From: an uncultured Acidobacteriota bacterium
GTDB lineage: Bacteria; Acidobacteriota; Vicinamibacteria; Vicinamibacterales; 2-12-FULL-66-21
Assembly (NCBI GenBank): GCA_963725145.1
Contig: CAVRXL010000012.1
Coordinates: forward strand, 1,155,616 to 1,219,615
Length of the DNA: 64,000 bases
Direction: 5' to 3'
Of this stretch, positions 6,389 through 53,678 are shown in pieces; position 1 is the first letter of the stretch; each line of letters opens with the position of its first letter. A program made the translations under genes and the position numbers. The notes under the pieces were generated by a model, which was not told where the DNA came from, made no database searches, and was given only the letters and a program-made list of their open reading frames with translations.

Positions 6389-7060
6389 GTGAAGGAGCGG
6401 AACAAGGCGAGAGCGACTTCGGATCAGATCTCGGAGCTGACCACCAACCGGCTCTCGGTGTACCTCCGGTGCCTGAACGCTCTCGATGCGGCGGGCGTGC
6501 GGACGATCTCCTCCAAGGCGCTCGCCGAGCAGTTCCACCTCAACGCGGCACAGATCCGCAAAGACCTCGCCTATTTCGGGGAGTTCGGCATTCGCGGCGT
6601 CGGGTACTACGTCAAGGAACTGAAGCGCCACCTCCGGCAGATCCTCGGCCTCGACCGGCGCGTGCGGGTCGCGATCATGGGCGCGGGCAACCTGGGCCTC
6701 GCGCTGGCCGACTATCCCGGATTCCGCGTCGAAGGATTCGAGATCGCGGCGCTCTTCGATACCGAGCGGGCGAAAATCGGCCGGCGCTCCCGCTCCGGGG
6801 TCCGCATCAACAGCATCGAGGACCTGCGCGCCGTCGTCCGGCGCGACAAGATCGGGATCGCCGTGATCGCGGTCCCCGCCGAGTCGGCGCAGCCTGTCGT
6901 CGATGCGGTCGTCGACGCCGGGATCAAGGCAATTCTGAATTTCTCGCCGGGGGCCCTCACGGTGCCGCCGGAGGTCAAGCTGAAGAGCGTCGACCTGACG
7001 GTGTCGCTCGAGAGCCTGTCGTTCTATCTGGCCCAGGGGGAAATGGATGAAACACCGTAA
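6389..7060 (+). CDS. rex: Redox-sensing transcriptional repressor Rex
   Basis: [47 protein letters not shown]. Confidence 0.95.
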
Positions 7061-7631
7061 GAGCGCCCGCGGCCCGCGCGAGGCGCCGGAGGGAAGTGCG
7101 GCGAAGCCGCACCGCCGAGCGCGAGCGAGCGGGGGTGGGGCCCCGCGAGCCAAGAAAAATGATGGCAAGCTCTCCCACATCGACCCACTCGGCCGTATCC
7201 GGATGGTGGACGTCGGAGGGAAGCCGGTCTCCCGCCGCGAGGCCGTCGCACGGGGAAAGATCACGATCGCGCCCGGAGCGCTCCGCCTGGTCCGCTCGGG
7301 CCGCACGAAGAAGGGCGACCCACTCGAGACGGCCCGGCTCGCCGGCATCATGGCGGCGAAGCGGACCGCCGGCCTCATCCCCCTGTGCCATCCGCTTCCG
7401 CTCTCGCACGTCTCGGTCGAGCTCACGCCGCGGCGCGACGGCTACGACATCGAGGCGCGCGTTCGCACCGAGGCGCAGACCGGCGTCGAAATGGAAGCGC
7501 TGACCGCAGTGGCGGTTGCCGCGCTCACGATTTACGACATGGTCAAGGCGGCCGACCGCACGATGACGATCGGCGACATCATGCTCATCGAGAAACGGGG
7601 AGGGCGGTCCGGGCCGTATCGCCGCGGCTGA
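7047..7631 (+). CDS. moaC: Cyclic pyranopterin monophosphate synthase MoaC, with a repeat-derived N-terminal extension
   Basis: [58 protein letters not shown]. Confidence 0.93.
7062..7165 (+). repeat. ~100-bp structured dispersed element, copy A
   Basis: 7062-7150 aligns ungapped with the reverse complement of 14966-15054 at 79/89 identity (counted by eye). Internal hairpin gtgcggc-gaa-gccgcac. Confidence 0.9.
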
Positions 7632-8626: not shown

Positions 8627-8661
8627 GAATGCTGAATGTGGAATGCTGAATGCTGAACACT
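8627..8661. repeat. GAATGCT heptamer tandem repeat overlapping the fadD start
   Basis: gaatgct gaatgtg gaatgct gaatgct gaacact; the ATG at 8650 lies inside the array. Confidence 0.85.
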
Positions 8662-10434
8662 GACACCTCGACCGACGTCCGCACGATCGCCGATGTGCCG
8701 TTCTTCGTCAGCGGCCGTTACCCGCGCGCGACGCTGGTCGGGCGCAGCCTCGCGAGCGGCATCCAGTGGATCTCGAGCAAGGATTTCTTCGAACGCGTTC
8801 GCGACCTGAGCCTGGGGCTCTCATCGTTCGGGCTGACGCGCGGCGACCGCGCGGCGATCATGTCCGAGAGCCGGCCCGAATGGCTGATCGCGGACCTTGC
8901 GATCCTGACGGCCGGAGGCGTCACCGTGCCGGTCTATCCGACGCTCACGCCGCAGCAGGCGCGATACATCCTGCAGGACGCTGGCGCGCGGTGCGTGTTC
9001 GTCTCGAACGCCGCTCAGGCGGAAAAGGTGCAGCAGGTGCGTCACGAGCTGCCCGCGCTCGAGGCGGTCATCCTGATCGAACCGGGCGGGGCGGCGGGCG
9101 GATCCGTGTTGACGCTCGACGACGTCGCGGCGCGAGGGCATGCGGCAATCACCGCGTCATGGGGTGTGGCGAAGGAATACAAGGACGCCGCGCGGGCGAT
9201 CCAGCCGGGCGACCTGGCGACCCTCATCTACACGTCGGGGACGACCGGCGAGCCGAAGGGCGTGATGTTGACGCACGCCAACCTCGCGTCGAACATGCAC
9301 GCGAGCATCGAGGCGCTCCGGGTAAACGAGGAAGACCTCGCGTTGTCCTTCCTCCCGCTCAGCCATGCCTTCGAGCGGCTGGTGTCGTACGTCTATCTCA
9401 CCGCAGGGACGACGCTCGTGTTCGCGGAGTCGATCGAGACGATCGCTCGCGACATCGCGGCGGTGAGGCCGACCGTCATGACCGCCGTCCCGCGCGTGTT
9501 CGAAAAGCTGCACACGCGCATAACCGAGAAGGGAACGACCGGACCGTTCCTCAAGCGCGCGATGTTCAAGTGGGCGGTCAACCAGGGCCTTCGCGGCGGC
9601 CTGTTCAAGGGGCTCGCCGACCGCCTCGTGCTCCGGAAGATCCGGGACGGGCTCGGCGGGCGGCTGAAGTACCTCGTGTCAGGGAGCGCGCCGTTGTCGA
9701 AGGAGATCGCCGCGTTCTTCCAGGCCTGCGGGTTCAACATCATCGAGGGCTACGGGCTGACCGAGACGTCACCGGTGCTGACCGTGAACCCGCCGGCGGC
9801 GCCGCGGTTGGGTACGGTGGGACGCGCCGTCCGCGGCGTCGAGCTCCGCATCGCCGAGGACGGCGAGATTCTCGCGCGCGGCCCGAACATCATGGCGGGC
9901 TACTACAACAAGCCGGAGGCGACCGCGGCGGCGGTCGAGGACGGCTGGCTGCACACCGGCGACATCGGCGAGATCGACGCCGACGGGTACCTGAAGATCA
10001 CCGACCGGAAGAAGGACCTGCTGGTGACCTCCGGCGGAAAGAAGATCGCGCCCCAGCCGATCGAAGGACGGCTCAAGGCGAGCCCGCTCGTCGGGGAAGC
10101 CGTGCTCATCGGCGATCGCCGCAAGTACCCCGCCGTCCTCATCGTCCCCGACTTCGCGGTCCTGGAACGCCGGCTCCGCGATCTCGGGCGCCCGGCGGCG
10201 TCGCGCGAGGAGCTGGCCGGCCGCGACGACGTGCGCGCGCTCTATCAGGAGCTCGTCGACGCGCTCAATCGCGAGCTGTCCCAGTTCGAGCGCATCAAGC
10301 GTCTCGCGATCCTCCCGCGGGAATTCACGATCGACTCCGGCGAGCTGACGCCCACGCTGAAGGTCAAACGAAAGGTGGTCGAGGAGCGGTACAAGGACGC
10401 GATCGCGGGGCTGTACAGCGACGAGGCGTCTTAG
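8650..10434 (+). CDS. fadD: Long-chain fatty-acid--CoA ligase (AMP-binding)
   Basis: YTSGTTGEPKGVMLTH, LSFLPLSH, EGYGLTET, GWLHTGDIG, DRKKDL, ELTPTLKVKR. Confidence 0.9.
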   Translation: MLNTDTSTDVRTIADVPFFVSGRYPRATLVGRSLASGIQWISSKDFFERVRDLSLGLSSFGLTRGDRAAIMSESRPEWLIADLAILTAGGVTVPVYPTLTPQQARYILQDAGARCVFVSNAAQAEKVQQVRHELPALEAVILIEPGGAAGGSVLTLDDVAARGHAAITASWGVAKEYKDAARAIQPGDLATLIYTSGTTGEPKGVMLTHANLASNMHASIEALRVNEEDLALSFLPLSHAFERLVSYVYLTAGTTLVFAESIETIARDIAAVRPTVMTAVPRVFEKLHTRITEKGTTGPFLKRAMFKWAVNQGLRGGLFKGLADRLVLRKIRDGLGGRLKYLVSGSAPLSKEIAAFFQACGFNIIEGYGLTETSPVLTVNPPAAPRLGTVGRAVRGVELRIAEDGEILARGPNIMAGYYNKPEATAAAVEDGWLHTGDIGEIDADGYLKITDRKKDLLVTSGGKKIAPQPIEGRLKASPLVGEAVLIGDRRKYPAVLIVPDFAVLERRLRDLGRPAASREELAGRDDVRALYQELVDALNRELSQFERIKRLAILPREFTIDSGELTPTLKVKRKVVEERYKDAIAGLYSDEAS

Positions 10435-10526
10435 AATCCAGAATCCAGAATCCAGAAGGCGCTCGGCCGACTGGCGCTAGCCATCGCAGCGCGGCTTTCT
10501 TCTGAATTCTGAATTCTGAATTCTAG
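10432..10526. repeat. Inverted heptamer arrays (AGAATCC)3 ... (TTCTGAA)3 between convergent genes
   Basis: tagaatccagaatccagaatccagaa at 10432-10457 and ttctgaattctgaattctgaattctag at 10500-10526. Each array begins at the TAG stop of its flanking gene. Confidence 0.88.
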
Positions 10527-11422
10527 ATTCTGCCTTTGTCCGGCGGCGGTTCTATGTGGATGATCGCGTCCACGATCTGCGGATAGCGCTGCATCAGCCC
10601 GTCCTTGACGACGTGCGACAACCGGTGGGCTTCGTCCAGACGCGTGTCCGGACGCATCCACACGTGAAGGTCCAGGAACACATGATCGGCGGTACCGCGC
10701 GTGCGGATGTGGTGGCAGCCGAGCACGCCGGGTACGGCCATGACGACCGTCCGAAGATCCTCCTCGGGGATCACGATGCGATCCGCCAGGATATGTGTCG
10801 CCTGCCGGCCGATCTGGAACCCCGTATGTCCGATGACCATCGCCACGACCAGGCCGCTCAGCGGGTCCAGGATGGGGAAGCCGAGCCACACGCCGACGAG
10901 CGATGCGAGGACGCCGAGCGACGTCAACACGTCGCTGCGCGTGTGCATCGCGTCCGCGACCAGCAGCTCGCTCGTCAGCCTCGTGGCGGCGCGCCGCTCG
11001 TAGCCGACGACGACCAGATTGACGGCGAGCGTTGCGAGCATGACCGCGAAGCTGGCCGCGCTCACCCGCGGCGCGCTGGCGCCGCCGAGGTGCTGCAGCG
11101 ACGTGCGCACGACCTCGGCGATGACCAGCACGAGCAGGGCGACGATCGCCGCGGCCGTCAGCGTCTCGAACTTGCGATGGCCGTAGGGATGATCGACGTC
11201 CGGCGGTTTGCCGGACGCGCGCAGCCCCACGAGCGCGACGACGTTGGCCGCCGCGTCGGTCAGCGAGTGAAAGCCGTCGGAGATGATGCTGACCGTCGCG
11301 GTGCCGTAGCCGAAGACCAGCTTGGCGATGGCGACCGCGAGGTTGGCGGCGAGAACCCGCGCGAGAACCCGCGTGACCGCGGCGGAGCGGGTCAGAACAA
11401 TCGTGCCTTCGGCAGCGGCCAC
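10523..11422 (-). CDS. Cation diffusion facilitator (FieF-like) transporter; start uncertain
   Basis: SDGFHSLTD, HPYGHRKFE, ADAMHTRSD, IRTRG, DLHV, IHIEP. Confidence 0.92.
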   Translation of the reverse strand: MAAAEGTIVLTRSAAVTRVLARVLAANLAVAIAKLVFGYGTATVSIISDGFHSLTDAAANVVALVGLRASGKPPDVDHPYGHRKFETLTAAAIVALLVLVIAEVVRTSLQHLGGASAPRVSAASFAVMLATLAVNLVVVGYERRAATRLTSELLVADAMHTRSDVLTSLGVLASLVGVWLGFPILDPLSGLVVAMVIGHTGFQIGRQATHILADRIVIPEEDLRTVVMAVPGVLGCHHIRTRGTADHVFLDLHVWMRPDTRLDEAHRLSHVVKDGLMQRYPQIVDAIIHIEPPPDKGRI

Positions 11423-14328: not shown

Positions 14329-14769
14329 ATGTTCCGGACGGTCTCCGCCCTCGTCAAGGGCTTCGCGCTGACCTTCAAGCACCTCTTCAAGAAGCCGATA
14401 ACGGTCAACTATCCAGACCAGAAGGTGCCGGTCTTCCCGAAATACCGCGGGAAGCAGGTGCTGATGCGGGACGAGAACGGGCTGGAGAAGTGCGTGGCGT
14501 GCGGACTATGCGCCGTCGCCTGCCCGGCGGACGCGATCTACCTCGAGGCGACGGAGAACGACGGAACGGTCCAGGCCGGCCCGCGCTACGCGTCCATCTA
14601 CCAGATTCACAAGACGCGCTGCATTTTCTGCGGGTACTGCGAAGAAGCCTGCCCGGTGTCGGCCATCTTCATGGGCAAGGACTACGAGCTGGCCGTGTAC
14701 AGCAAAGACGATTTCATTTGGGACAAGAAAGACCTCCTCGTCCCCGCCTCAACCTCTTCGGCGCCCTAG
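14329..14769 (+). CDS. nuoI: NADH-quinone oxidoreductase subunit I (2x[4Fe-4S])
   Basis: TVNYP, KYRG, CVACGLCAVACP and CIFCGYCEEACP. Confidence 0.92.
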   Translation: MFRTVSALVKGFALTFKHLFKKPITVNYPDQKVPVFPKYRGKQVLMRDENGLEKCVACGLCAVACPADAIYLEATENDGTVQAGPRYASIYQIHKTRCIFCGYCEEACPVSAIFMGKDYELAVYSKDDFIWDKKDLLVPASTSSAP

Positions 14770-15494
14770 GCGATATTCACGCCGACTTCGATGCCGTCCG
14801 CCGCGTCATGCGGCGCCACGCCGAGATTCCCTTCTGGCTGTGCGTGGGTGATGTTGGAGACGATGCCGGCGTCTACGAAGACCCGCCGGCGCCCCTCTAC
14901 TGGATAAAGGGCAACAACGAAGACTTTGATGTCGTGAGTGATCTGTCGCCATCATCATTCTCGGCGCTCGCGGGGCCCCACCCCCGCTCGCTCTCACTCG
15001 CCGGTCCGGCTGCGCCGGACTTCGCTCCGCCGGCTCGCTCGGGCCGCGGGCGCTGGCCCAACCTCGTGTACATCCCAAACGGCGTTGGTGTGGAGCTCGA
15101 CGGTCTGTATGTAGCGGGCGTTGGCGGGACCTTCGCGCCCACTTGGTACGACAAGAAGCCAGGGGAGTTAATCAAGAAAGGGAAGGACGACAAGCGCCGG
15201 CACTTCGTCCGCGAGGAAGTCGAGGCCGTGAAGACGATGCGAGGGCTGGACGTCTTGCTGACGCACGAAGCGCCGAGGCCGTTTCGCGCGGCCGGCGGGC
15301 ACGACGCCGGCAAGACGCCGATCAACGAGATGATCGCGTCGGCGAAGCCGCGGCTCCACCTGTTCGGTCATCACCACCGGTTCGTGGAGATGACGGTCTC
15401 CGGCGTCCGGTCGGTGTGCCTGGACCTCGTGTCGCGGTCGTATCTCGTGATCGATGGGGAGACGCTCGGGTACGAAAGACGCGAGACAGTGTAG
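14718..15494 (+). CDS. Calcineurin-like metallophosphoesterase with an in-frame repeat insertion; start uncertain
   Basis: GDIH, VGD, KGNNE, LLTHEAP and LFGHHH motifs. A ~35-aa low-complexity segment between GNNE and NLVYIPNG corresponds to the repeat at 14948-15054. Confidence 0.85.
   Translation: MGQERPPRPRLNLFGALGDIHADFDAVRRVMRRHAEIPFWLCVGDVGDDAGVYEDPPAPLYWIKGNNEDFDVVSDLSPSSFSALAGPHPRSLSLAGPAAPDFAPPARSGRGRWPNLVYIPNGVGVELDGLYVAGVGGTFAPTWYDKKPGELIKKGKDDKRRHFVREEVEAVKTMRGLDVLLTHEAPRPFRAAGGHDAGKTPINEMIASAKPRLHLFGHHHRFVEMTVSGVRSVCLDLVSRSYLVIDGETLGYERRETV
14948..15054 (-). repeat. ~100-bp structured dispersed element, copy B (inside a CDS)
   Basis: Reverse complement matches 7062-7165. Hairpin gtccggc-gca-gccggac. 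Confidence 0.9.
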
Positions 15495-15631
15495 GCCCGA
15501 CCTTCCAGGTCGGGCGTGCGAGATCATCCAAACGCCCAGCTTGCGCACACGCCCGACCTGAGGTCGGGCGTGCCGGGATCATCCAAACGCCCAGCTTGCG
15601 GCACGACGCCCGACCTGAAGGTCGGGCCTAC
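15491..15631. repeat. REP/BIME-like element: three GCCCGACCT-n-AGGTCGGGC hairpins bounded by GTAG...CTAC
   Basis: gtag-gcccgacct-tcc-aggtcgggc; gcccgacct-g-aggtcgggc; gcccgacct-ga-aggtcgggc-ctac. The linker gatcatccaaacgcccagcttgcg occurs twice. Confidence 0.9.
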
Positions 15632-24263: not shown

Positions 24264-24297
24264 GCCCCAGCCCCAGGCCCCAAGCCCCAAGCCCCAC
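24264..24297. repeat. CCCCAAG-type heptamer tandem repeat
   Basis: gccccag ccccagg ccccaag ccccaag ccccac. Confidence 0.75.
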
Positions 24298-31426: not shown

Positions 31427-31466
31427 TGCTGAATGGCGAATGCTGAATGCTGAATGGCTAGAATGG
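31427..31466. repeat. GAATGCT heptamer tandem repeat in the divergent promoter region
   Basis: tgctgaatggcgaatgctgaatgctgaatggctagaatgg. Confidence 0.8.
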
Positions 31467-52024: not shown

Positions 52025-52052
52025 TGAATGCTGAATGCTGATTGCTGAATGC
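52025..52052. repeat. GAATGCT heptamer tandem repeat
   Basis: tgaatgctgaatgctgattgctgaatgc between the M28 stop and the lon start. Confidence 0.8.
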
Positions 52053-53563: not shown

Positions 53564-53678
53564 GTAGCGCAGCCCTCTAGCAGCCCGTAGCGCAGCCCTC
53601 TAGCAGCCCGTAGCGCAGCCCTCTAGCAGCCCGTAGCGCAGCTCTCTAGCAGTCCGTAGCGCAGCCCTTTAGGGCTGC
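53564..53678 (+). repeat. Five tandem 23-bp REP-derived units
   Basis: gtagcgcagccctctagcagccc x3, one variant unit, then gtagc-gcagccct-tt-agggctgc (complete hairpin). Confidence 0.92.

Follow-up and report, generated by a model that had tools for sequence, protein, structure and literature searches.

Why should a short repeat carrying compensatory substitutions lie antisense and in frame within an enzyme gene that otherwise appears intact? The question is raised by a 64,000-nucleotide (nt) stretch of DNA from an uncultured Acidobacteriota bacterium of the order Vicinamibacterales (contig CAVRXL010000012.1, positions 1,155,616 to 1,219,615; the whole stretch is termed here "the window"), in which a metallophosphoesterase gene harbors such an element and a second copy is found on the opposite strand. 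The element is likely to be a lineage-specific, non-autonomous, hairpin-structured repeat that multiplies in Vicinamibacterales (Acidobacteriota) genomes. This reading starts from direct observation of a repeat family, of its fold and distribution, of sites filled in one genome and empty in another, and of host genes left intact; the copying of the element would need a factor acting in trans. The genome holding the window, G000 (6.55 Mb, 13 contigs, 66-67% G+C), is compared below with, among others, three congeners, G001, G002 and G003. The two copies, their tails and their host genes are the following.

7062 to 7150, plus strand: copy A, the 89-nt body of a long-form (type L) element, from the window alignment, with helices taken from the family alignment A2 described below.

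Modules of copy A, plus strand: a 5' cap, AGCGCC(C/T)GCGGCC; hairpin A, 7075 to 7123; hairpin B, 7125 to 7150, with the invariant core GGGGGTGGGGCCCC.

7151 to 7168 (18 nt), plus strand: the A-rich tail of copy A, CAAGAAAAATGATGGCAA, lying within the inserted DNA as judged from the filled site against the empty ones of G001, G002 and G003.

7047 to 7631, plus strand: the moaC coding sequence (Pfam MoaC, E 2.7e-54), the ATG of which (7047) falls inside the 3' end of the upstream gene; codon 5-6 is followed by 34 codons from the element, read in sense.

6389 to 7060, plus strand: the upstream gene, from the list of open reading frames, its stop codon (7058-7060) being separated from the element by 1 nt; at the orthologous junction, G001, G002 and G003 carry no insert.

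14966 to 15054, minus strand: copy B, 89-nt body, from the window alignment; hairpin A, 15041 to 14993; hairpin B, 14991 to 14966.

14935 to 14965, minus strand: the tail of copy B, GCCGAGAATGATGATGGCGACAG..., its outer boundary approximate, the flanks being too diverged for an exact limit when filled sites (G000, G003, G001) are set against the empty one of G002.

14718 to 15494, plus strand: the metallophosphoesterase gene carrying copy B antisense and in frame (Pfam, start scan, orthologues, substitution rates, structural model).

Copies A (7062-7150) and B (14966-15054) align without gaps and are identical at 79 of 89 positions, exactly as the original prediction, made from the letters of the window, had stated. 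The 28-nt end that it described as invariant, GAGCGAGCGGGGGTGGGGCCCCGCGAGC, occurs exactly twice in the window, with no match in 100 shuffles. The ten differences fall at element positions 16, 22, 25, 31, 37, 43, 49, 54, 59 and 61. Positions 22/54 and 37/49 are the two clear compensatory pairs announced, and the third, thought to be weaker, is also genuine: positions 25/31 are paired in all 27 sequences of the family alignment (CG in 21, AU in 3, GC in 3). The remaining differences comprise a coordinated switch at 16/61 from two Watson-Crick pairs to a tandem G·A/A·G, a loop position (43), and a change from G-C to G·U (59). The fold is hence preserved across all ten differences. Another claim, that the element is specially open for translation on both strands, does not hold: five of the six frames are open in each window copy, and composition-matched shuffles average 4.4-4.7 open frames. 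Selection for openness of all frames was rejected as an explanation, the 76-78% G+C composition accounting for it. What had been proposed, a possibly undescribed non-autonomous mobile element or structured RNA or single-stranded DNA, therefore survives for its structure, its multiplication and the lack of a described match, and fails for its special translational openness.

Copies A and B are members of a large family. G000 contains 63 exact occurrences of the core GGGGGTGGGGCCCC, and BLAST and nhmmer retrieve 25 long-form copies in it. The majority of cores lie in a shorter form, type S, with the consensus CAGCGCGCC-GAGCGTGAGCGA-GGCGTGGCAGGCGCT-core-AGCGC followed by an A-rich run. Using both profiles, nhmmer delineates 65 merged loci in G000, 11 of them without an exact core; the window holds only two, which are copies A and B. 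The unit is 65-110 nt long, 76-78% G+C and modular: a 5' cap, one or more internal hairpins, a terminal hairpin whose covarying stem surrounds GGGGGTGGGGCCCC, and an A-rich tail. Five loci are composite, a short L-like unit being nested in the first hairpin of a type S unit.

Among 61 genomes of the family to which G000 belongs, the core count ranges from 0 to 232 per genome (0-1 for a reversed-pattern control), with sharp contrasts within genera: 51, 28, 0 and 0 in one, 82, 3, 3 and 0 in another, 53, 1, 0 and 0 in a third. A phylum-wide sample of 301 genomes contains just three with more than two cores, namely G000 (63), G028 (of the same order, 19) and G270 (3), the reversed pattern giving 0-2 per genome; outside the order, counts of at most two are background. 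A pattern scan of the genomes of 185,579 species returned at least 123 stretches. Among the matches listed, the named organisms are all assigned to Vicinamibacterales/Vicinamibacteria or Acidobacteriota/Acidobacteria, except one "Deltaproteobacteria" metagenome-assembled genome (MAG), and one record is an unclassified "uncultured bacterium". This pattern is that of a proliferating element, not of a conserved regulator. In some short-read assemblies of relatives, contigs end within or beside element copies (G004:C546, G004:C240 and G003:C33), and the repeat probably breaks short-read assemblies of the group.

The comparison with described repeats returned no matching family. A cmscan of 14 element loci against Rfam 15 (four at E<=1, ten at E<=5), which includes the Acidobacteria motifs, gave only chance miRNA or sRNA matches far below gathering scores. 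Literature on Vicinamibacter and Acidobacteria repeats, on miniature inverted repeats and on the core motif yielded no description, in a search that largely left subscription journals uncovered. As far as we could search, the family is therefore previously undescribed; its general kind is already known.

The fold was assessed on alignment A2, which contains 27 distinct type L sequences, 11 from G000 and 16 from other genomes. It consists of a long helix (columns 14-24 with 58-68), an inner hairpin and a terminal hairpin around the core, two hairpins containing tandem G·A pairs. Standard pairs form in 82.5% of the cells, against 72.3% in shuffles and 26-52% in controls in which the pairing was slid along the alignment. 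Both sides change in 11 of the 28 pairs (67 cells), as compared with 7.5 pairs (22.2 cells) in shuffles and 2-4 pairs (4-6 cells) in slid controls. The covariation score of 0.254 is reached by none of 500 shuffles (0.080), slid controls remaining at or below 0.032. Almost all non-standard cells are tandem G·A/A·G: one such position pair is invariant in all 27 sequences, and two others alternate between G·A/A·G and C-G/G-C. RNAalifold recovers the same inner helices; it also proposes a different register for the terminal hairpin, with which the 5' cap might pair. Our own register is favored by the covariation at columns 76/97.

An alignment-free count of the stem adjacent to the core gave 15 haplotypes among the 63 copies of G000 and 38 among 133 copies in MAG loci of other genomes; stem pairs 1, 2 and 5 are paired in 95-100%, with either Watson-Crick pairs or tandem G·A at pairs 3 and 4. 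Covariation thus strongly argues for the two-hairpin fold, and the fold suggested earlier is supported by the score and by the core-stem haplotypes. The G-rich strand would be the folding one, because its G·A pairs become pyrimidine-pyrimidine mismatches on the complement. A folded G-rich single strand, either RNA or single-stranded DNA, may then be what is recognised or selected.

Copy B lies, within the region 14948-15054, between the GNNE motif and the GGT/THE motifs of the phosphoesterase, antisense and with the host frame open, the insert reading as 40 residues. The host protein matches Pfam Metallophos (E 3.5e-7). No ATG, GTG or TTG stands beside its first conserved motif, and the nearest canonical in-frame start is TTG 14718, which is probably the start codon; it overlaps by 52 nt the end of the upstream gene (stop 14767-14769), which we take to be nuoI. 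In the G003 orthologue, an ATG directly precedes the first conserved motif. An orthologue was found in 27 of 41 relatives searched. Among 20 aligned loci, a long insert occupies the same loop in congeners G003 and G001, and a G004 contig begins inside the insert; congener G002 and 15 other genera possess a short loop of about 4-20 residues from the GNNE motif to the next conserved strand, with no unrelated sequence of comparable length in its place. The frame read through the insert differs in G001 and G004, where the stem variant is GCGCGT/ACGCGC; the stems of G000 and G003 are GCGAGC.

The ratio of nonsynonymous to synonymous substitution rates (dN/dS) in the phosphoesterase flanks is 0.072 against G003 (dS 0.77) and 0.131 against G001, values pointing to purifying selection on the gene. 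The insert itself has a dN/dS of 0.6, with 4 synonymous differences over 35.2 sites as compared with 71 over 147.7 in the flanks; its nucleotide sequence therefore seems to be held, or to have been recently homogenised, for reasons other than the peptide. An AlphaFold model built on 18 orthologues has a mean predicted local distance difference test (pLDDT) score of 85.1, and its only stretch below 50, residues 67-98, is the insert, which models as a disordered loop. A PDB sequence search with the protein returned no match; a fold search with the model retrieved Dbr1 and TT1561-type metallophosphoesterases as the closest structures. The antisense, in-frame insertion into an apparently intact metallophosphoesterase, as first proposed, is thus borne out by the open frame, by the dN/dS of 0.07-0.13 and by the short loops of G002 and 15 genera.

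Copy A is no intergenic reference copy but lies inside moaC. In G001, G002 and G003, the stop codon of the upstream gene, presumably a Rex-like repressor, overlaps the moaC start, and MoaC begins MKHSKRALSHLD without the element. In G000, 102 additional nt (34 codons) stand in frame and in sense between the fifth/sixth codon and LSHID, and the Pfam MoaC match starts at residue 53. The junction is sharp because the G001 flanks are 93-97% identical: G001 reads GTAAG-CGCGC-GCTTTCC and G000 reads GTAAG-[107 nt]-GCTCTCC, 107 nt thus standing where G001 has 5, for a net gain of 102. The 18-nt A-rich tail is part of what was inserted, and no target duplication is seen. In G004, a shorter and degenerate copy is found at the same site.

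Seven more loci of G000 have a copy with coding signal on both sides, bringing to nine the in-frame, in-gene loci, a result that gives substance to the analogy with Rickettsia palindromic elements (RPEs) drawn in the original prediction. All nine keep the frame without a stop in the host frame, in a screen that could detect frame-preserving cases only; every one of the six frames, three sense and three antisense, is used in one host or another. The inserts would be translated as Gly/Ala/Arg/Pro-rich stretches. The seven additional hosts are listed below.

LigD-type ATP-dependent ligase, sense: the ligase domain match runs from profile position 41, just past the insert; G003 has other sequence at the site.

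DNA polymerase III delta' (HolB), sense, composite copy: the domain match is in two stretches.

Era, sense, partial copy: 51 additional nt in G000 only, of five genomes aligned; the KH domain match begins past the insert.

UvrC, sense: the domain is in two stretches; the site is empty in G003 and G015, and filled with different contents in G001, G002 and G022.

DUF1800 protein, sense: the domain spans the insert.

Ser/Thr protein kinase, antisense, diverged copy: the kinase domain spans the insert.

Propeller-amidohydrolase protein, sense: supported solely by the continuous frame, and the weakest of the seven.

Most copies, however, are located outside genes. Cores are mostly found between two co-directional genes and point with them. 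Counted by hand, with composites taken once, 58 loci divide into 9 in genes and 49 outside, of which 46 are sense to the downstream gene, 2 antisense between co-directional genes and 1 between convergent genes. A co-oriented start codon with a good frame follows within 105 nt in 51 of the 63 cores (9 of 63 for the opposite side and strand, used as control), and in 32 of 63 it lies 14-20 nt after the core. The orientation agrees with that of the nearest gene in a ratio of 53:10. Of 43 downstream genes found, 40 were tested and 37 of these have Pfam matches, many starting at the first residues of the called protein. They include those of ribosomal proteins L4, S11 and S4, NusG, two NADH dehydrogenase subunits, an ATP synthase alpha/beta-family subunit, an AIR-synthase-family (PurM-like) protein, a 2-oxoacid dehydrogenase E2 and transporters, that is, a functional mix and not a regulon. 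At one further locus, L210 (G000:C11:41380-43395), a type S copy joins an amino-acid-kinase-like frame to that of a pyridoxal phosphate (PLP) enzyme of Cys/Met metabolism with no stop in between; the downstream PLP-enzyme gene has its own ATG 26 nt past the core.

Filled and empty sites also occur in housekeeping spacers: type S copies reside in the rpsM-rpsK and rpsK-rpsD spacers of G000, the former shared with G001, and neither is present in G002 or G003. In all aligned copies, the ends are AGCGCC... and ...GCGAGC, or AGCGC followed by an A-rich tail. This tail belongs to the insert at moaC and in the phosphoesterase, but upstream of rpsK the element-free congener is A-rich as well.

On these grounds, a repeat multiplying in Vicinamibacterales would mainly settle in short spacers of co-directional genes, in sense, its copies ending 14-20 nt before the downstream start. 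Some copies would land in genes, the survivors being those that keep the frame, have no stop and sit in a tolerant surface loop or terminus; they would be translated as Gly/Ala/Arg/Pro-rich inserts of about 17-55 residues. Both window copies would be of this rarer, in-gene kind, one antisense in the metallophosphoesterase and the other in sense at the MoaC N-terminus.

Several points weigh against this reading. The strong sense bias in spacers is not accounted for by selfish spread alone, and could stem from selection or from copying tied to transcription. Gene calls and start codons come from our own crude codon-usage script. Orientation relative to the leading strand stands at 40:23, that strand being inferred from a weak GC skew of about 1% either way. 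The ends are not inverted repeats, at most a weak resemblance being visible. The empty sites that the original prediction called for could be defined, in G002 for the phosphoesterase and in G001-G003 for moaC, but the filled and empty junctions of moaC, Era and UvrC disclose no target-site duplication, and insertions replace 5-11 nt of host sequence; hence nothing points to a known transposition mechanism. The analysis brought up no candidate mobilising gene, genes tracking copy number not having been systematically searched. Finally, sites filled in several species often hold different subtypes, as at the ligase (GCGCGT in G000, GCGGCT in G001). This suggests hot spots, or the overwriting of one copy by another; a single old insertion is not distinguishable from reinsertion at hot spots or from gene conversion.

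The element may be, though we consider it unlikely, a mobile translation-start cassette acting as RNA, with sense-specific G·A hairpins and a loop, GGGGGUGG, complementary to the anti-Shine-Dalgarno sequence. Its copying would then be transcription-coupled or RNA-templated, and it would take over the spacer before the start as a ribosome standby site or cistron boundary. If true, this would account for two features left unexplained by selfish spread alone, the near-absolute sense bias and the constant spacing of 14-20 nt to the ATG. Alternatively, and also doubtfully, the element would be a functional RNA module between cistrons, its hairpins protecting the upstream message or insulating the start, and the in-gene copies being by-products; the core loop GGGGGUGG could here pair with the anti-Shine-Dalgarno tail of 16S rRNA, making a standby or decoy ribosome site. 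By our assumption of the near-universal anti-Shine-Dalgarno sequence and of the pairing, GGGGGUGG forms 6 Watson-Crick and 2 G·U pairs with it; the 16S rRNA 3' end itself gave no match to our search pattern in the G000 assembly.

A functional RNA module is favored by the sense orientation and the placement 14-20 nt before start codons, by an orientation that tracks transcription rather than replication (53:10 vs 40:23), and by the tandem G·A pairs, which favor the sense strand. Furthermore, the strongest 5-mer enrichment upstream of predicted starts is that of GGAGG and AGGAG, indicating that the canonical anti-Shine-Dalgarno sequence is in use; two of the 11 loci lacking an exact core read GGAGGTGGGGCCCC, a perfect Shine-Dalgarno sequence; and synonymous sites are more conserved in the phosphoesterase insert than in its flanks (4/35.2 vs 71/147.7). 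However, congeners lack the element in the rpsM-rpsK and rpsK-rpsD spacers and whole genomes of the same genera have no copy, so it is dispensable. The downstream genes share no common theme, and the core is 21 nt from the ATG, too far for a normal Shine-Dalgarno sequence.

It is improbable that the element is of the repetitive extragenic palindromic (REP) or bacterial interspersed mosaic element (BIME) type, with a REP-associated tyrosine transposase (RAYT; Y1/HUH) using the folded single strand as its substrate. The conserved loop and covarying stems of the hairpins would suit it, and so would the mosaic architecture. The location between unidirectional genes and the occasional copies in replication and repair genes, here UvrC, the LigD-type ligase and HolB, would suit it as well, both being described for REPs in a survey (PMC3733652). 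The GTAG or CGTC tag is nevertheless absent from both ends in all aligned copies. G000 does contain four Y1_Tnp matches, but these loci have no core, loop motif or significant nhmmer match, and one has two copies of a different palindrome; moreover, G021, with 51 copies and rated 100% complete, has no Y1_Tnp match. Y1/RAYT was accordingly rejected as the required mobiliser, and a transposase or HUH nuclease flanked by copies, which the original prediction suggested looking for, was not found nearby, the four Y1 genes being unflanked. The different palindrome, GCCCGACCTGAAGGTCGGGC, is a second, unrelated repeat, present in the window at 15495-15627 (exact palindrome 15608-15627) in a 55-nt unit repeated 2.4 times; two nearby copies stand in the 3.3-kb locus of one of the four Y1 transposase genes (L200:1313-1377), and it may be that gene's own REP.

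That the element is a classical miniature inverted-repeat transposable element (MITE), with an insertion sequence as its parent and a DDE transposase as its mover, is very improbable. Small size, many copies, a variable copy number and nested insertions speak for it. The element lacks terminal inverted repeats beyond the weak resemblance mentioned, and the moaC, Era and UvrC junctions lack the target-site duplication; no parent insertion sequence was seen, in the absence of a systematic search for one. It is also G+C-rich, and prokaryotic MITEs are typically A+T-rich according to a MITE review (PMC10969869). Finally, that the in-gene copies are intervening sequences, removed as introns or bypassed by translational hopping and never translated, is scarcely credible: stable hairpins inside coding sequence and conservation at the nucleotide and not the protein level (omega 0.6, low dS) would fit, but nine of nine loci keep the frame without a stop, which is needless if they are removed or bypassed (in a screen limited to frame-preserving cases), and Rfam gives no match to intron or ribozyme families.

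A non-autonomous, hairpin-structured repeat multiplying in this order thus remains the preferred reading, and such a repeat can be placed among known systems. In-frame fusions are described, and the Rickettsia elements singled out, in the MITE review (PMC10969869). As depicted there, RPEs are short, structured repeats in multiple families, often in frame in unrelated housekeeping genes, to which they add a peptide while leaving the gene intact. The present element likewise inserts in frame in unrelated intact genes, at nine loci. RPEs are, however, about 150 bp long, reside in A+T-rich obligate intracellular hosts and are reported, in the REP survey (PMC3733652), to end in CGTC. In contrast, the element is 65-110 nt long, 76-78% G+C and without CGTC, in large genomes assembled from soil and groundwater metagenomes, and most of its copies are intergenic and strongly sense-oriented. 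Sequence kinship or a conserved peptide is not apparent either, all six frames being used across hosts and the range being limited to one acidobacterial order; here the two are set apart without a direct sequence comparison.

With REPs and BIMEs, as the same survey presents them (copies inside genes, many of replication or repair; GTAG and CGTC tags defined; PMC3733652), the element shares short covarying hairpins in many copies, a mosaic arrangement, a location between unidirectional or convergent genes, and some copies in replication/repair genes. It differs in lacking the tags as defined there (PMC3733652) and the association with RAYT/Y1 (REPtron), in being longer with two or more hairpins, and in standing 5' of a downstream start codon, REPs being typically downstream of coding regions. 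Neither the terminal inverted repeats nor the target-site duplication of MITEs are present.

Mycobacterial interspersed repetitive units (MIRUs) offer another point of comparison: they are repeats in intra-operon spacers, oriented with the flanking genes, with open frames touching the flanking stop and start codons. MIRUs are nonetheless tandem direct repeats without a conserved hairpin fold, in contrast to the element, which is dispersed, hairpin-structured and also found in genes. In sum, the element behaves like REPs and RPEs but belongs to neither.

Other repeats have been observed in these genomes. Many different 7-nt tandem arrays fill the intergenic spacers of G000, resembling the heptamer STRR (short tandemly repeated repetitive) sequences of cyanobacteria. 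Tandem Repeats Finder (TRF) reports 290 arrays of period 7, 203 of period 14 and 71 of period 21, as compared with 14 of period 6 and 33 of period 8. In the window, heptamer arrays are found at 8627-8657, 10433-10457, 10500-10532, 24264-24296, 31427-31456 and 52025-52052. They flank the element on both sides in the MAG loci L100, L104 and L165, stand beside it in the coding sequence of UvrC in G000 and G022, and occur at the ligase in G003; in the same spacers, relatives carry heptamers of other sequence. At window positions 53564-53672, a 23-nt unit, GTAGCGCAGCCCTCTAGCAGCCC, recurs 4.7 times with 95% identity.

In-frame selfish DNA in genes is best known from Rickettsia, according to the MITE review (PMC10969869); here, it is found in large G+C-rich genomes of an abundant, little-cultured soil lineage, in which it reaches core genes such as those of MoaC, Era, UvrC, DNA polymerase III delta' and the LigD-type ligase. 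For annotation, such repeats lengthen proteins and can fuse neighbouring reading frames. For RNA biology, they provide hundreds of natural variants of a tandem G·A hairpin with an invariant loop. The conspicuous strand and position bias sets the element apart from known kinds and calls for a mechanism, and its patchy distribution within genera offers a comparative route to the copying factor.

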